Shown here in pieces: positions 11,452-17,588 of a stretch of DNA of 64,000 nucleotides. The translations under genes were made by a program, and so were the position numbers. The stretch covers positions 3,548 through 67,547 of the forward strand of contig JBILWX010000003.1 in assembly GCA_044369655.1 (NCBI GenBank), read 5' to 3'. Source of the stretch: Pirellulales bacterium. Lineage in GTDB: Bacteria > Planctomycetota > Planctomycetia > Pirellulales > UBA1268. Position 1 is the first letter of the stretch. The number at the start of each line of letters is the position of its first letter. A model generated the notes under the pieces. It saw only the letters and a list, made by a program, of their open reading frames with translations. It did not search any database and was not told the origin of the DNA.

Positions 11452-12909
11452 CTACGTGGGGCAGCGGGCGCCGAAATAGCCATGCCGGTCGATGTGCGCG
11501 GCGACCTCGGGAACCACGAGTTCTCGCCATGACGGGTCGCCGGAGCAGATCCGCGACCGGACCTCTTCGCTCGAGTAGGTGCGGAGCGCCGACTCGTCGC
11601 ACGGCAAGCCCCGGATCAGGCCGTTGACACGGAGATGCTCGAGCAAGTGCGTCAGGTGTGGGGCCACCGTCATCGTGTCGGCGGTGATCACCCGGCCGTC
11701 GAGCATGTCCCGCGTGGGATGGACATAGAGCCGGACCCGATGCGTGAACAGCCGGCCGAAAGCCTCGAGAATGCCCCCCTCGAGATGCCGGTAGTGGCTC
11801 TCGTTGAAGAGTTCCCGCAGCAGCGGCACGCCGAGCACCAGGCCGGTCTGCTCGACGTGGCGATCGGCGAGATATTCCCCGAGCGCATGGAAGGCACCGA
11901 TGTCGCTGACGAGCACCATCTTGCCGGCGGCGGACAGCAGGTCGACGCGGGCCAGGAAATCGGCGTCTTCCGCGGTCCCGCGGTCCCGCAGGTTGTGCAT
12001 GGTGATTTCCATGATTTCGCGGATCTTCCCCGGCGTGCCGGCCGGGGTGGTCGCCGACGGAGAGGCGGGCTCCGCCGTGTCGGCCTCGAAGCTCGCCCGC
12101 GCGCGGGCCATCATCTCGAGGTTCAGCCTGGTTACCGGGGCGAATCGTCCGCGCTCGATGAGGACCCGGCTCCGCCTGATCGACTCCGAAGCCAACAACG
12201 GCGTGCCGTCGACGTCGAAGAGCAGGGCCGGCGTGAAGCCGACCCGCACGAGGTGCAGGCCCAGCAGCCGGTTGTCGACGCCGCCGAAGGCGGGGCCGCG
12301 CATGTGGATCCAGTCGATCTCCAGCCGCTCACGGCCGATGGCGTCCAGCAGCGTCTCGATCAGCTTCCGGGGTTCCTGCCAGTGGTGGAAGGCTGCGTGG
12401 ATCAGGTTCACCCCCAGCCGGCCCACGGCGTCTTGTTGCAGGGCGTTGGTGGTATCGAGCAGCCGGACATGGAGCAGGATGTCGCTCGTCTGGGAACGCA
12501 CGGCATGCTGGAACCGCAATCCCATCCAGACGTGACACTCGTTGCCGCCCTTGAATGAACGGGCTGCCGCGGTGTCGGCAAAGACGAAGAATCGCGTCCG
12601 GTCGCCGCGCACGCCGTCCAGTCGTTCGTGCAGGAGCCGATACTCATGGTCGAGCATCTGCTCGATCCGATCCCGCGAGACATACCGCTGCGTCTTGCCG
12701 TAGATGGCATCGCTGACGGTCATGTCGTAGGCGGAGATCGACTTCGCCACCGTGCCTGCCGCGCCTCCCACGGCGAAGAACCAGCGGGCCACCTCCTGAC
12801 CGGCGCCGATCTCGGCAAAATTGCCGTAGATGGATTCGTCGAGATTGATCGCGAAGGCCCGCTGGGCGGTCGGATCGACGGCTTGGTTGGCGAGAGGGGT
12901 CGCGTGCAT
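11452..12909 (-). CDS. conserved protein of unknown function
   Basis: 485-aa ORF with ATG at 12909 and GC3-rich codons. The N-terminal block FAEIGAGQEVARWFF..GGAAGTVAKSISAYDMT.SDAIYG looks like a widely conserved uncharacterised family. I recognise no catalytic motif. Confidence 0.7.
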   Translation of the reverse strand: MHATPLANQAVDPTAQRAFAINLDESIYGNFAEIGAGQEVARWFFAVGGAAGTVAKSISAYDMTVSDAIYGKTQRYVSRDRIEQMLDHEYRLLHERLDGVRGDRTRFFVFADTAAARSFKGGNECHVWMGLRFQHAVRSQTSDILLHVRLLDTTNALQQDAVGRLGVNLIHAAFHHWQEPRKLIETLLDAIGRERLEIDWIHMRGPAFGGVDNRLLGLHLVRVGFTPALLFDVDGTPLLASESIRRSRVLIERGRFAPVTRLNLEMMARARASFEADTAEPASPSATTPAGTPGKIREIMEITMHNLRDRGTAEDADFLARVDLLSAAGKMVLVSDIGAFHALGEYLADRHVEQTGLVLGVPLLRELFNESHYRHLEGGILEAFGRLFTHRVRLYVHPTRDMLDGRVITADTMTVAPHLTHLLEHLRVNGLIRGLPCDESALRTYSSEEVRSRICSGDPSWRELVVPEVAAHIDRHGYFGARCPT

Positions 12910-13014
12910 GGCGGGTGGGTTGCCGGGCGATGCGGCTGAGCGAACGGTTGCCGATCATACGCTTTGACCGGGGACTTGGCAGCCGGCGTGGCGGCGCACG
13001 CCGGCAGCAAGCGA

Positions 13015-13044
13015 GCGGGCCGGGCGTTTGCACGCCCGGCCCGC
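13015..13044 (-). terminator. 12-bp perfect GC hairpin (middle of three consecutive hairpins downstream of the YTV gene)
   Basis: gcgggccgggcg-tttgca-cgcccggcccgc. It is flanked by hairpins at 12982..13005 (9-bp stem) and 13065..13083 (7-bp stem). It lies directly 3' of the minus-strand stop at 13093. No strong U-tract. Confidence 0.45.
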
Positions 13045-13092
13045 CTTTGCTTCCTCACGCGTCACCCCGACCGAGGGTCGGGGCGGGGCCGA

Positions 13093-14637
13093 CTAGCAGC
13101 CCTTCTTGCAGCCGAGGCCGTGGCCGAGGAGGCCACCCTTGCCAGCGGCGCGACCGCCGTTGCCGTTCGAGCAGCCGCAGCCGTTGTCGGCCGGGACCTG
13201 CTCTTCGACGCACTTGCGGACCTGGACGCACACCGACTTCGTGACCTTCTTGGGCACGCGGACGACGTACGACTCGGTCTTCGTCTCCGAGACGTTGTCG
13301 CTGACGCACACGCTGTAGGTGGCGGTCTTCTCGACCGGCACCATCACCGTGTAGGAGACTTCCTTGGTCCGCGTCTCGGGCACGCACTTGTTCACCGTGT
13401 ACTCGCGGGTGCGGGTCTCGGTGCGGCACTTCTTCACGCACACCGTGCGGGTCCGGGTCTCCGGAACCATCTTGGTGACGCAGTAGGTGGCCGACCGATC
13501 CTCGCAACGCGACTTCTTCACGCAGATCGTCCGGGTCCGGGTCTCCGGCACCATCTTCGTGACACAGTAGTTGCGGGTCCGCTCCTCGCAGCGCGACAGC
13601 TTCACGCAGTAGTTGCGGGTCCGCTCCTCACAGCGGGTCTTGTGGACGCACACCGTCCGCGACCGCTGCTCGCAGCGGCTCTTCTTCACGCAGTAGGTGT
13701 AGGGAACCTGCTCGCACTCGTGCTTCCACATCGTGACCTCGACCTCCTTGGTCTCGCACGTGGGCACCCAGCGACGGCAGCAGACGACCTTCGGGCAGCA
13801 GGGATTGCCGGCGGCGTCATACTTGCCGTTGGCGGAAATCTCCTTGGCCTCGGTCACCCAGTGGCCGCCACGGACCGTCACGGTCTTCGTGCTCTTGACG
13901 GGCACGCGCTTCGACACCGTGCGGAAGCCGGTCATCTGCTCGGTGTAGGGCACGTTCACCATGTAGGTCTGCTCGACCTGCTCGGTGTAGGGCACGTTCA
14001 CCTTGTAGGTCGCCGTCCGCTCCTCGGTGTAGGGCACGTTCACCTTGTAGGTGGCCGTCCGCTCCTCCTTGACCGGCACCATCACCGTGTAGGTCTGCTC
14101 GACCTGCTCGGTGTAGGGCACGTTCACCTTCCACGTCCGGGTCCGCTCTTCCTTGACCGGCACGCGCACCGTGTAGGACTCTTCACGGCTCTCGGTGTAG
14201 GGGATGGAGACGTTGTACGTCGCCGTCCGCGTCTCCGGAACGTTCACGTTGACGGTGTAGTCCACCGACTTCGTGCGCTGTTCCGGCACCTTAACCGTGT
14301 AGTTCCGCGTCCGCTCCTCGACCCGCGGCACCTTCTTGGTAACCGTGAAGGACCGCTCACGCACCTCGGTCGTCCACTCCGTGCTCTCCACCTCCCGGAT
14401 TTCCGGGACCATCTTCCACACCTTGACCGTCTTCATGCAGGCGTCGGCGGCAGCCGCACCCTCGGTCACCACGGCGTCGGCCGGGGCGGCCGCAGCGGCA
14501 TCGGCACCACCAACGAGGACCGAGCCCTCGGCCGGGACACTCTTCGCGGCATCCTCGCCACGAACGAAACCACCGGCAACACACACGCCAGCAGCGGCAA
14601 CCCACGGCAGGAAGCCAAACGTCAATCGCTTCTTCAC
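13093..14637 (-). CDS. secreted Cys-rich YTV-repeat protein
   Basis: GTG start at 14637, 5 nt after a GGAGG SD (the track ORF starts further upstream at 14739). Signal peptide KKRLTFGFLPWVAAAGVCVAGG. About 12 VP-x-E-x-RT-x-x-YTV units are followed by about 8 Y-C-V/RCEERTRNY units. The tail is Gly/Cys rich (GCGCSNG..GCKKGC). Confidence 0.85.
   Translation of the reverse strand: MKKRLTFGFLPWVAAAGVCVAGGFVRGEDAAKSVPAEGSVLVGGADAAAAAPADAVVTEGAAAADACMKTVKVWKMVPEIREVESTEWTTEVRERSFTVTKKVPRVEERTRNYTVKVPEQRTKSVDYTVNVNVPETRTATYNVSIPYTESREESYTVRVPVKEERTRTWKVNVPYTEQVEQTYTVMVPVKEERTATYKVNVPYTEERTATYKVNVPYTEQVEQTYMVNVPYTEQMTGFRTVSKRVPVKSTKTVTVRGGHWVTEAKEISANGKYDAAGNPCCPKVVCCRRWVPTCETKEVEVTMWKHECEQVPYTYCVKKSRCEQRSRTVCVHKTRCEERTRNYCVKLSRCEERTRNYCVTKMVPETRTRTICVKKSRCEDRSATYCVTKMVPETRTRTVCVKKCRTETRTREYTVNKCVPETRTKEVSYTVMVPVEKTATYSVCVSDNVSETKTESYVVRVPKKVTKSVCVQVRKCVEEQVPADNGCGCSNGNGGRAAGKGGLLGHGLGCKKGC
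13250..14350 (-). repeat. intragenic coding tandem repeats, 42-nt (14-aa) period
   Basis: The 22-mer ctcggtgtagggcacgttcacc occurs at 13939, 13981, 14023 and 14107. The 23-mer cagtagttgcgggtccgctcctc occurs at 13565 and 13607. Confidence 0.9.
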
Positions 14638-14661
14638 AGGAACCTCCAGAGGAAAAAACAG

Positions 14662-14675
14662 GCAAAACGTTTTGC
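14662..14675 (-). promoter_or_regulatory. AT-rich 14-bp perfect palindrome in the YTV gene leader
   Basis: gcaaaacgttttgc. On the mRNA strand it is followed by cTGTTTTTTCC, then GGAGG and the GTG start. It could be an operator or a small attenuator hairpin. Confidence 0.35.
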
Positions 14676-14868
14676 GAACACGCCTGCCAGGCATCACGTG
14701 GAGACCACCCCCAGTCGGTGACCGTCCGCCGCGATTCATCCCGGCCGAGCTGTCAGCCGCCCATCCCTGGCAGGCCGCGGAGCCGTACGTGGCATTCCAC
14801 CGCGACCGACAGGGTTTGCGCGACAGGCAAACTCACAGCAGAAGATCGATCTTTCCCTGTCGAAAAAC

Positions 14869-15090: not shown

Positions 15091-15900
15091 TCAGCCCGTG
15101 GTTGATCCCACGAGGATCAGGATCAGCTCCTTCGGGCCGTGGGCGCCGAGCACGAGAATCCGCTCGATGTCGCCCGTGCGGCTGGGGCCGGTGATGAAGG
15201 AGAGCATGCTCGGCATGCGACCGTCGTGCCGGGCCTGGGCGGCGTGCAAGGCATCGGCGAGGGTCGCCACAATCTGGTCGGCGGTGGCCACGACCACGTG
15301 GACATGCGGCAGGATCGATAGTGCCCGTCCGCCCGAGGTGGCGCTTGAGACGAGGATCGAACCGGTCTGGGCGACGAGCGCCTCACACGACGTCATACCT
15401 GCATCACACGATTCGAGGGCATTCTTGTCGAAATCCGCGGCATCGACGCGATAGGTCGTGCAGGGCATGCCCGCGAGCAGGGGCTCCACGAGCGCATGGG
15501 GATGCCAGGCCACCTTCTGCCAGCCCCGTTCCCGCGCGATCGCGACGAGGGTGGCGCTCGCGGCGGTGAGGTCGGGGGCTTGATGGACGATCGCCCGGAG
15601 CTTGCCGAGATTGGCCAGGAGCAGCGCGAGGCGTTCCGCCGGCGTCTCGCCGCCATCGGGCAGCCACGGACGGGCGACCTCCTCGGGTAGCACGGTGAGC
15701 ATGGGAAGGCCGTGGGCGGCGTGTGCAGACCCGAGACTCGGAGCCGATGCGCCGCTGGTCGTCGCCGTCGCCCGTTGATCCCGCTGGCTTCCCTGCACCT
15801 GCTCGGTAAGGCCGTGCGGGAAGGGCGCCGGCACGCGGAGTGCCTCCTTGATCCGCTTCAGGATCACGTCGCGGGCCGAGAGGCCGGTTTCGCCGCTCAT
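15091..15900 (-). CDS. lutC: lactate utilization protein C (LUD domain, YkgG family)
   Basis: ATG at 15900 (MSGETGLSARDVILKRIKEAL). The ATGA overlap with the lutB stop is at 15897..15900. LUD-domain C-terminus. The track ORF reaching 16371 is an extension. Confidence 0.8.
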   Translation of the reverse strand: MSGETGLSARDVILKRIKEALRVPAPFPHGLTEQVQGSQRDQRATATTSGASAPSLGSAHAAHGLPMLTVLPEEVARPWLPDGGETPAERLALLLANLGKLRAIVHQAPDLTAASATLVAIARERGWQKVAWHPHALVEPLLAGMPCTTYRVDAADFDKNALESCDAGMTSCEALVAQTGSILVSSATSGGRALSILPHVHVVVATADQIVATLADALHAAQARHDGRMPSMLSFITGPSRTGDIERILVLGAHGPKELILILVGSTTG

Positions 15901-17381
15901 GCCCGAACCTCTCCGGCGTGAACGTGCTTGTCCGAGCGGCGGCGATGCCACTGCCGCCGGAAGCTCTGCCGCGGGGCTGCCGGGAGATCCCGGGAGGCCA
16001 GCCAGTCCCGCAGCAGCGGCGGCCGCAGAGCCTTCAGCAGCGGCAGCGTGCAGCGGAAGACCGCCCCGCCTACCGCAAAGAGCCAGGGGCGGCGGGCCAC
16101 CACGACGAACAGCCGGTGCCCCAGTCGCTCCCAGGCGTTGGGAGCGGTCCGGGCGGCATTGCGGCGGTTGTGCAGCAGGTGGTGGTGGATGTCGATCCGC
16201 ACCGGACAGGCGTCGGTGCAGGCGCCGCAGAGCGAACTGGCGGCGGAGAGGTGGTTCCAGTCGGCCAGACCGCGGAGATGCGGCGTGATCACCGAGCCGA
16301 TCGGTCCCTGGTAGGTCGTACCGTACGTGAAGCCCCCCACGTTCTTGAAGATCGGGCAGACATTCAGGCACGCACCACAGCGGATGCAGTGGAGGCTGTC
16401 CCGCTGCTCGGGATCGGCGAGGAGGGCCGTCCGCGAGTTGTCGAGGAGCACGAGGTGCATCTCCTCCGGGCCATCGGCTTCGCCGGTCTGCCGTGGCCCC
16501 GCGTAGAGGGTGTTGTAGCAGGTCATGGGCTGGCCAGCCCCGGCCGTGGCCAGCATCGGCAGGAGCACCGCCAGGTCGTCGAGGTGTTCCACCACCTTCT
16601 CGATGCCGGAGATCGCGATGTGCACGCGCGGCAAGGCCGCCGTCAGCCGGGCATTGCCTTCATTCTCGGTGATCGAAATCTGGCCGGTTTCGGCAACGAG
16701 GAAATTCGCCCCGGTGATCCCGACGTCGGCATCGACGTAGAGCCGGCGCATGTGCCGGCGGGCGATCATCGTGAGTTCCTCGGGGCTGTCCGTCGGCGCC
16801 GTGCCGAGATGCTTTTCGAACAGATTGCTGATTTCGTCGCGGCGGACATGCATGCACGGGAAGACGAAATGATAGGGAGGCTCGCCACGAAGTTGCTGGA
16901 TGAACTCGCCCAGATCGCTTTCCACCACGCCGTAGCCGTCAGCCTCGAGCGCCGCGTTCAAGTGGATCTCTTCGCTGGTCATGCACTTGCTCTTGATGAC
17001 CGCCTTCGCCCGGGCGTCCCGGACGAGCTGGAGCACGATCGAGCGGGCCTCTTCGGCGCTCCGGGCCCAGTGGACAAGTCCGCCATTGGCCTCGAAGTTG
17101 GCGACGAACCGGGGCAGGAGTTCGTCCAGCCGGTTCACGGCCGACCATTTTGCCAGGCTCGCCGCGTCGCGGGCGTGCTCCCAGTCGCGGAAGCGGGCTT
17201 TTTGGACGTCGCGGCTGGCGTAGTAGCCGCTGAGGGCCTTGCGGACGAACGCCCGGTGTCCGGTATCGCGGACATGTTCGGTCGCGTCGTGCAGAAACCG
17301 CTTTTTAGCTTCCCGCGCCTGTTCCCCGCCGGGGTCGGCGGGGTGGCTGGCGGCCGGAGCGGAAGCGTCGGTGGCGATCAT
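15897..17381 (-). CDS. lutB: lactate utilization iron-sulfur protein B (YkgF family)
   Basis: LUD domain plus two 4Fe-4S motifs, CIRCGACLNVCP and CGACTDACP. Start is at ATG 17381 (MIATDA..) or at 17504. Confidence 0.85.
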   Translation of the reverse strand: MIATDASAPAASHPADPGGEQAREAKKRFLHDATEHVRDTGHRAFVRKALSGYYASRDVQKARFRDWEHARDAASLAKWSAVNRLDELLPRFVANFEANGGLVHWARSAEEARSIVLQLVRDARAKAVIKSKCMTSEEIHLNAALEADGYGVVESDLGEFIQQLRGEPPYHFVFPCMHVRRDEISNLFEKHLGTAPTDSPEELTMIARRHMRRLYVDADVGITGANFLVAETGQISITENEGNARLTAALPRVHIAISGIEKVVEHLDDLAVLLPMLATAGAGQPMTCYNTLYAGPRQTGEADGPEEMHLVLLDNSRTALLADPEQRDSLHCIRCGACLNVCPIFKNVGGFTYGTTYQGPIGSVITPHLRGLADWNHLSAASSLCGACTDACPVRIDIHHHLLHNRRNAARTAPNAWERLGHRLFVVVARRPWLFAVGGAVFRCTLPLLKALRPPLLRDWLASRDLPAAPRQSFRRQWHRRRSDKHVHAGEVRA

Positions 17382-17588
17382 CCAGTCATGATAGCCGACG
17401 GAGAGCCCACGGCCGCAGTCGCCTCCGACCGCCCCGGGATCGTGGTTCTGTGGAATTCTGCCGGGACAGACGGTAAAAATTGTGGAATACTTCTGAAAAG
17501 CCACGAGGTGGACGCCGACCCCCCCGGGGGGCCGCCCGAAGCATCGGGCTGTGCGTCAGCGGCAGGCCGGTTTGGAAAGGTGACCCGA

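Follow-up and report, generated by a model that had tools for sequence, protein, structure and literature searches.

A Cys-rich YTV-family protein of a freshwater Pirellulales bacterium whose two repeat arrays probably pair as one giant beta-hairpin

The YTV gene and its product

The DNA examined here (the window) is a stretch of 64,000 nucleotides from a Pirellulales bacterium (assembly GCA_044369655.1, contig JBILWX010000003.1, positions 3,548 to 67,547 of the forward strand). Its minus strand carries a gene with a GTG start that encodes a Cys-rich protein of 514 amino acids, a member of the YTV family of planctomycetes; they are called below the YTV gene and the YTV protein. The product carries a putative export signal, and its two repeat halves most likely zip into a single beta-hairpin ribbon about 65 nm long. 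The coordinates of the gene, of the segments of its product and of the flanking elements are collected in Table 1.

Table 1. Features of the YTV gene, of its product and of its flanks in the window.
Feature	Window coordinates	Strand	Basis
Coding sequence of the YTV protein (514 codons and stop)	13093..14637	-	Open reading frame (ORF) list; Pfam PF07639, E=3e-19; ratio of nonsynonymous to synonymous substitution rates (dN/dS); G+C content at third codon positions (GC3) of the sense frame, 0.91
Shine-Dalgarno sequence GGAGG	14643..14647	-	5 nt upstream of GTG; CTGGAGG..GTG invariant in 9 aligned orthologous leaders
Putative signal peptide, residues 1 to ~26 (MKKRLTFGFLPWVAAAGVCVAGGFVR), with conserved Cys19	14560..14637	-	By inspection; conserved in 72 orthologs
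Low-complexity spacer rich in Ala, Gly, Asp and Glu, residues 27-66, then Cys67 at the base of the N arm	14440..14559	-	Predicted local distance difference test score (pLDDT) <50; variable among orthologs
N arm, residues 68-267, Cys-free, ends RGGHW	13837..14436	-	AlphaFold2 (AF2) strand 69-266; length in 14-residue steps
Closed tip/linker, residues 268-283 (SANGKYDAAGNPCCPK)	13789..13836	-	GGHW-to-WVP distance constant at 33 residues in all orthologs
C arm, residues 284-482, 14-residue units, 17 ladder Cys	13192..13788	-	AF2 strand 284-481
Gly/Cys-rich C-terminal tail, residues 483-514 (ADNGCGCSNG...GCKKGC)	13096..13191	-	C(K/R)KGC end conserved; pLDDT <50
Three GC-rich hairpins 3' of the stop codon (10-, 14- and 9-bp stems; no U tracts)	12982..13085	-	Minimum free energy (MFE) folding
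Conserved 5' leader/promoter region with invariant blocks	14648..14745	-	Alignment of orthologous leaders

A scan of species-representative genomes with this single protein yielded 80 orthologous loci, including 72 complete genes (408-543 amino acids), nearly all of them in freshwater metagenome-assembled genomes (MAGs) labelled Pirellulales or Planctomycetaceae. The complete products all begin with VKKR, VRKR or VKKF, and 66 of the 72 end with C(K/R)KGC. Some of the MAG records with this Pirellulales-type gene (L022, L023, L031, L034, L035, L046, L050, L051, L059, L064 and others) bear the titles 'Candidatus Kuenenia stuttgartiensis', 'Kuenenia sp.', 'Chitinophaga sp.' or 'Planctomicrobium piriforme'; such titles are probably wrong taxonomic labels on freshwater MAGs.

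A preliminary description of this DNA, made from the letters alone, had taken the minus-strand frame as the coding one and had pointed to its strong Shine-Dalgarno sequence and GTG start, both of which were found again here. Compared with its orthologs, this frame has a dN/dS of 0.17-0.30, the substitutions being concentrated at sense third positions. The plus strand also holds a long open frame (12964..14721, 585 amino acids), and the chance that this frame is the real gene, or that the locus is not expressed, is close to nil. Its G+C content is 0.88 at first and 0.58 at third codon positions, the inverse of what is found for the genuine genes of the window; it is free of stop codons only because A is the last base of no more than 7 among the 515 sense codons; and its product has no Pfam match. 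It was thus rejected as an artefact of the high sense GC3. The YTV gene, by contrast, is kept in at least 80 MAG loci, and its GGAGG and GTG are both invariant across the nine aligned leaders. An in-frame ATG at 14739, 34 codons upstream, was considered as an alternative start and discarded, as it is not conserved in these leaders, and GTG is therefore regarded as the start codon.

The N-terminus reads, by inspection, as a typical export signal (MKKRLTFGFLPWVAAAGVCVAGGF), with a KKR n-region followed by a hydrophobic stretch of about 20 residues, as had been proposed. Cys19 (window 14581-14583) lies within this hydrophobic region and is kept in all orthologs (AAAGVC, AAAGAC, AAVAIC) in a context that differs from a canonical lipobox. 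The N arm contains about 13 YTV-type units of 14 residues (xVPYTEERTATY[TK]V, residues ~73-255), close to the 12 or so counted earlier (12-13 in our count). It is separated by a non-repeat centre (RGGHW...NPCCPKVVCCRRWVPTCE) from the C arm, in which about 13 units of the same length mostly have Cys at unit positions 5 and 13 (KKSRCEERTRNYCV). The register is strict, with Y-x-V at residues 113, 127, ... 225 and then at 315, (329), 343, 357, 371, 385, (399) and 413. The CC-containing linker NPCCPKVVCCRRWVPTCE singled out in the preliminary description occupies residues 278-295, and the Cys cluster of the tip is made up of the 268-283 linker, the CC at 286/287 and C294. The Cys number, earlier put at about 28 and mostly in the second half, is exactly 28 (5.4%), namely C19, C67 and 26 from residue 280 onward, and the tail ends as then described. 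At the DNA level, the near-identical cores spaced by 42 nt are real: an identical 22-nt sequence occurs at 13939, 13981 and 14023 (also at 14107), the cores at 13565 and 13607 have 23 nt in common, and whole units are identical at 41 of 42 nt for two located 126 nt apart and at 37 of 42 for two located 84 nt apart.

Family membership and distribution

The proposed assignment to the YTV family is borne out by a match to the Pfam profile PF07639 that is far above chance (69.2 bits for a cut-off of 21, in 6 stretches); a search of NCBIfam with the protein returned no family. The high Cys content and the Cys/Gly-rich terminus are shared with the family: out of 120 homologs, the majority contain 20-45 Cys and are Cys-rich at their ends. 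Among 201 genomes sampled across the phylum, 13 have YTV matches; 11 of these, including the genome of the window, belong to the same class or order, to which all strong matches are confined, and the two matches outside are weak. No YTV match was found in 14 control genomes. The gene is an ordinary member of a known family of Cys-rich planctomycete wall proteins.

Three YTV genes are present in the MAG to which the window belongs (4.1 Mb, 92% complete). Both paralogs have YTV repeats of about 15-16 residues. One of them (contig C34, L095:3-1655, minus strand) encodes a two-armed protein that has RGGY.W at its centre, is poor in Cys and is prolonged at its C-terminus by a long Pro/Ala-rich extension. 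The other (contig C295, L002/L094) has YTVCKPV(W/Y)ET units, with a Cys after most YTV motifs, and ends at the contig edge.

The preliminary description regarded the family as hypothetical proteins without function, a view that is not in line with the literature. According to papers that cite Hieu et al. (2008), Cys-rich YTV proteins are main constituents of the walls of Rhodopirellula baltica that remain after boiling in sodium dodecyl sulfate (SDS). In the same way, YTV proteins were reported as 'the major constituents' of SDS-boiled walls of Gemmata obscuriglobus (PMC5287468), and the two top-scoring proteins of Tuwongella immobilis walls are YTV proteins (PMC8567305). The small set of planctomycete-specific genes that are essential in Planctopirus limnophila includes one for a YTV protein, which was suggested to regulate wall rigidity via its cysteines (PMC10632474). 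YTV genes were reported as absent from early-diverging planctomycetes (PMC8567305); further work on YTV wall proteins can be found in PMC12673574 and PMC3343278. The earlier guess that the protein could be a structural envelope component agrees with these data by analogy, since homologs of cultured species were recovered from SDS-boiled walls; the organism studied here is represented by an uncultured MAG.

The two arms vary jointly in length

As suspected from the DNA repeats, the repeat copy number varies among relatives, in steps of 14 residues. The lengths of both arms were measured between conserved anchors in 68 orthologs and were found to vary jointly, in five matched classes: 129 and 144 residues for the N and C arms, respectively, in 6 orthologs, 143 and 158 in 20, 157 and 172 in 9, 171 and 186-187 in 29, and 185 and 200 in one. 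A tree was built from the alignment columns that remain when the variable units are left out, and at least 12 changes of length class occur on it; those that are matched, among them at least 8 independent changes of unit number in both halves, are dispersed across the tree, and each mismatch is confined to one tip.

Pairwise alignments show where units are lost. A deletion of residues 142-169 in the N arm is accompanied by one of residues 379-406 in the C arm, the exact mirror at i+j=550 (i and j being residues of the N and C arms) being 381-408. Likewise, a deletion of residues 191-204 in the N arm goes with one of residues 334-347 in the C arm, inside two near-identical units. Matched arms are also found in the wider family, where arms measure about 70 to about 280 residues and linkers 25 to 119: in 52 of 61 apparently complete homologs, the lengths of the arms differ by no more than 10 residues, for 15.6 expected by permutation.

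Covariation and structure prediction

Covariation was computed from an alignment of 73 ortholog sequences (effective number about 32, gaps treated as missing data) as mutual information with average product correction between N-arm and C-arm columns, averaged along anti-diagonals. Peaks were obtained at i+j=550 (z 4.8), 548 (z 4.6) and 552 (z 2.4), with the odd sums 549 and 551 at background, and no comparable peak was seen along parallel diagonals. The anti-diagonal excess is present in all five arm segments (z 3.6-5.8). The even-only pattern fits direct antiparallel pairing, because cross-strand neighbours and the i±2 diagonals share a face.

Two AF2 runs gave related pictures. With the family alignment, the predicted strands (residues 68-267 and 283-482) were near-continuous, and their breaks mirrored each other; when a separate ortholog alignment was used, two unbroken strands were obtained (residues 69-266 and 284-481). 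Both runs are in register i+j=550, as read from the strand limits given by DSSP. Taken together, four partly independent lines of evidence thus lead to one giant beta-hairpin with about 198 residues per arm.

Placement of the cysteines

The 17 ladder Cys of the C arm are all at even residue numbers, with spacings of 6, 8 or 14 residues, and would therefore lie on one face of the ribbon. About 96% of the C-arm Cys across orthologs are on this face (17.0 per sequence at even columns, 0.68 at odd ones), and the extra Cys specific to some lineages also arise on it. The Cys-bearing face is rich in Thr, Pro, Ser and Cys, the other one being made up of Val, Tyr, Arg, Glu and Lys.

At i+j=550, each of the 17 ladder Cys lies opposite E, Q, N, S, P, V, I or W, with Glu, Gln and Asn making up most of the partners; none of these Cys faces another Cys across the paired strands, the N arm being Cys-free. 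Since every ladder Cys faces a non-Cys residue, the ladder cannot, in this register, consist of intramolecular cross-strand disulfides, and the intramolecular disulfide ladder or beta-solenoid envisaged in the preliminary description does not fit the modelled pairing. Intramolecular cross-strand staples were also considered for Cys-richer orthologs and distant homologs and were rejected, as the mirrored N-arm and C-arm Cys pairs of these proteins have no common i+j; this counts against such staples and not against the hairpin. At one rung, 12 orthologs have C178 and K372 and the remainder Q178 and C372, so that the thiol stays on the rung and switches strand, a change that probably happened only once in evolution. 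When the Cys of the mature protein are counted, 38 orthologs have an even number and 35 an odd one, and this random parity speaks against full intrachain pairing, because fully paired chains would be expected to favour even numbers. The ladder Cys are thus probably exposed thiols available for intermolecular cross-links, and not parts of an intramolecular ladder.

A sister clade (P0005-P0014 and P0017, 40-46% identity; also locus L093) retains the two-arm YTV architecture, with Tyr, Glu, Ser and other residues in place of almost every Cys of the ladder, the linker and the tail. The ladder is therefore an addition to the fold, for which it is dispensable. This Cys-poor clade is in effect a natural 'no cross-link' variant.

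Flanking regions and neighbouring genes

The three strong hairpins reported downstream of the gene in the preliminary description are present. The 151-nt stretch that holds them has an MFE of -93.4 kcal/mol (z = -5.2 relative to shuffled sequences), and the stem at 13015-13044 was also recovered in a separate analysis. Upstream, the blocks ACTGGGG.TGG and GTGTT.GC.AA.CG and a T-rich run are invariant in the ~100 nt that precede the Shine-Dalgarno sequence (leaders of L013-L084), although the proteins encoded by these orthologs differ by up to ~35%; judging from their conservation, these blocks may correspond to a promoter or to a leader RNA. A search of Rfam with the gene and its flanks gave no meaningful family.

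The YTV gene is preceded on its own strand by LutB- and LutC-like genes (window 15091-17504, minus; loci L014-L090), which are separated from it by an intergenic leader of about 450 nt that includes the conserved blocks. Of the 80 orthologous loci, 52 have LutC and 48 have LutB in this upstream position; this neighbourhood is conserved, with no obvious functional link to the YTV gene seen. Directly downstream, an ORF of 485 codons (11452-12909, minus) has the GC3 of a normal coding sequence (0.87) and no Pfam match; it adjoins the YTV gene in just 6 of the 80 loci.

Proposed model and alternative explanations

Taken together, the data point, with a probability of about 0.65, to an exported Cys-rich YTV wall protein whose N and C arrays pair as a giant beta-hairpin and whose Cys serve for intermolecular links. 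Its assembly can be pictured as follows. The product of the gene would be exported and become a wall protein of freshwater Pirellulales. After export, the Cys-free N array (~68-267) would pair antiparallel, unit against unit, with the Cys-bearing C array (~284-482) in register i+j=550, giving a two-stranded ribbon with about 198 residues per arm that, at 3.3 Å per residue, would measure roughly 65 nm if extended. One face would expose Val, Tyr, Arg and Glu, and the opposite one Thr, Pro and Ser together with the 17 C-arm Cys in single file. Each end of the ribbon would have a further Cys cluster, made up of CC..CC and C294 at the closed tip and of C67 and the GCGC...GCKKGC tail at the open end. 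Through the ladder and these end clusters, intermolecular disulfides would then link the ribbons with one another or with both YTV paralogs, the end product being a detergent-resistant protein wall such as that described for the family.

Several points weigh against this proposal. The register of the AF2 models was read from DSSP strand limits and not from model coordinates or contacts, and their confidence is moderate (mean pLDDT 66 and 61; predicted template modelling score 0.26 and 0.22); the pLDDT is higher toward both ends and drops to about 50-56 halfway along the arms, where indels occur in the alignments. Moreover, a tendency of AF2 to model repeat proteins as long hairpins is known. 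The covariation comes from an effective number of only about 32 sequences; the top single pairs are mostly off the anti-diagonal, and it is the averaged signal alone that is clear. None of the solved structures is similar: the PDB gave no match in a sequence-profile search and no significant one with Foldseek. Three orthologs have unequal arms (L042, L080 and L086, with 171/158, 143/130 and 101/158 residues); they may result from repeats collapsed in short-read assembly or may be real intermediate or defective alleles. The Cys-poor clade does without the ladder, the role of which we infer. Lastly, family membership, coding frame, matched arms, mirrored indels, covariation register and the one-face distribution of the Cys were computed here; the wall location is taken by analogy from papers on homologs, and the rod geometry, the expression of the gene and all disulfides of this protein, including the intermolecular cross-links, are what we infer. 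The structural model is well supported yet unproven, and the one-sided row of Cys is clade-specific.

The same features could be read in other ways. The two halves might be independent domains, the C half being a beta-meander or solenoid stapled by neighbouring Cys (C-x5-C, C-x7-C) and the N half a separate YTV domain; the linker does divide two halves of different composition, and the regular +6/+8 spacing of the Cys at 316, 322, 330, 336, 344, 350 and 358 would permit hairpin-closing disulfides. Such an organization is unlikely, as it leaves unexplained both the independent matched changes of unit number with their mirror indels and the N-to-C covariation at 548/550 over the full length; in addition, AF2 shows no turns inside either half, and the random Cys parity and the same architecture in the Cys-poor clade both count against a stapled C half. 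If, on the other hand, a long hairpin is accepted, several of them could associate laterally and form an oligomeric beta-barrel or a tube similar to the stems of pore-forming toxins or the knobs of phage tails, since the two open edges of a two-stranded ribbon could pair. The weak Foldseek neighbours are exclusively long-hairpin barrel stems (lysenin, membrane attack complex (MAC)/C9, aerolysin, phi29 knob and binary-toxin pore), but none of these matches is significant (best E 0.018, template modelling score at most 0.14). A membrane-spanning barrel is unlikely because neither face of the ribbon is hydrophobic, and the proline found every 14 residues in the N arm would block regular edge pairing on that side, so that this assembly appears quite improbable.

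A role of the Cys in metal binding, as in metallothioneins or ferredoxins, would make the protein a periplasmic metal store or a redox protein instead of a structural one. The GCGC/CKKGC tail and the CCPKVVCC cluster resemble metal-binding motifs, and one homolog (P0059) carries the source name 'ferredoxin'. This explanation is nevertheless very improbable: neither Pfam nor NCBIfam gives a Fer4 or metallothionein match, the ladder Cys cannot form metal clusters as they would be 20-27 Å apart along an extended strand, and published proteomics places homologs in SDS-boiled walls.

The composition and construction of the planctomycete wall have been debated for decades, and YTV proteins are its best-documented protein component; no structure or assembly principle is given for them in the papers considered here. 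If the hairpin is real, the length of the rod would shift by about 4.6 nm per pair of units between natural orthologs, the ladder Cys would be expected in interchain bonds, and the gene would offer an unusual case of two distant repeat arrays held equal in copy number by selection on a fold. A wider proposal, to which we give somewhat less than an even chance, is that YTV wall proteins in general could be free-standing ribbons of tens of nanometres, of a fibrous type without solved counterpart, whose length is set digitally by the equal repeat number of the arms, and that in this freshwater clade about 17 thiols in single file zip the ribbons into a covalent mesh wall.

Comparison with known systems

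The central sheet of Borrelia OspA and the stems of lysenin, aerolysin and MAC resemble the proposed ribbon by their extended antiparallel strands rich in Thr, Val, Lys, Glu and Tyr, which lack a conventional hydrophobic core. They differ from it by the length of the strands (10-50 residues versus about 200 per arm here), and the ribbon lacks the membrane-facing hydrophobic stripe; as the Foldseek values given above indicate, the structural match is not significant.

OmcB and OmcA of chlamydiae are envelope proteins from the same superphylum (Planctomycetes, Verrucomicrobia and Chlamydiae, PVC) that stiffen the envelope through intermolecular disulfides. The analogy with the YTV protein is functional only, as there is no sequence relationship and no chlamydial outer membrane protein family among the Pfam matches. 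Furthermore, OmcB is made of globular beta-sandwich repeats and not of a continuous ribbon.

The closest known systems are the YTV wall proteins of Planctomycetia (PF07639), as studied in R. baltica, G. obscuriglobus (PMC5287468) and T. immobilis (PMC8567305). The protein described here shares with them the YTV match, a putative export signal, the high Cys content and the Gly/Cys-rich C-terminus, and the number of about three paralogs per genome and the distribution within the same class or order also correspond. No difference in kind separates them; what characterizes this ortholog group is the 14-residue unit and the location of the arm Cys on one arm and one face. As an annotation, the gene thus encodes an ordinary YTV family member, to which the present analysis adds a structural model, a two-arm hairpin that, to our knowledge, is absent from the papers on YTV proteins considered here.

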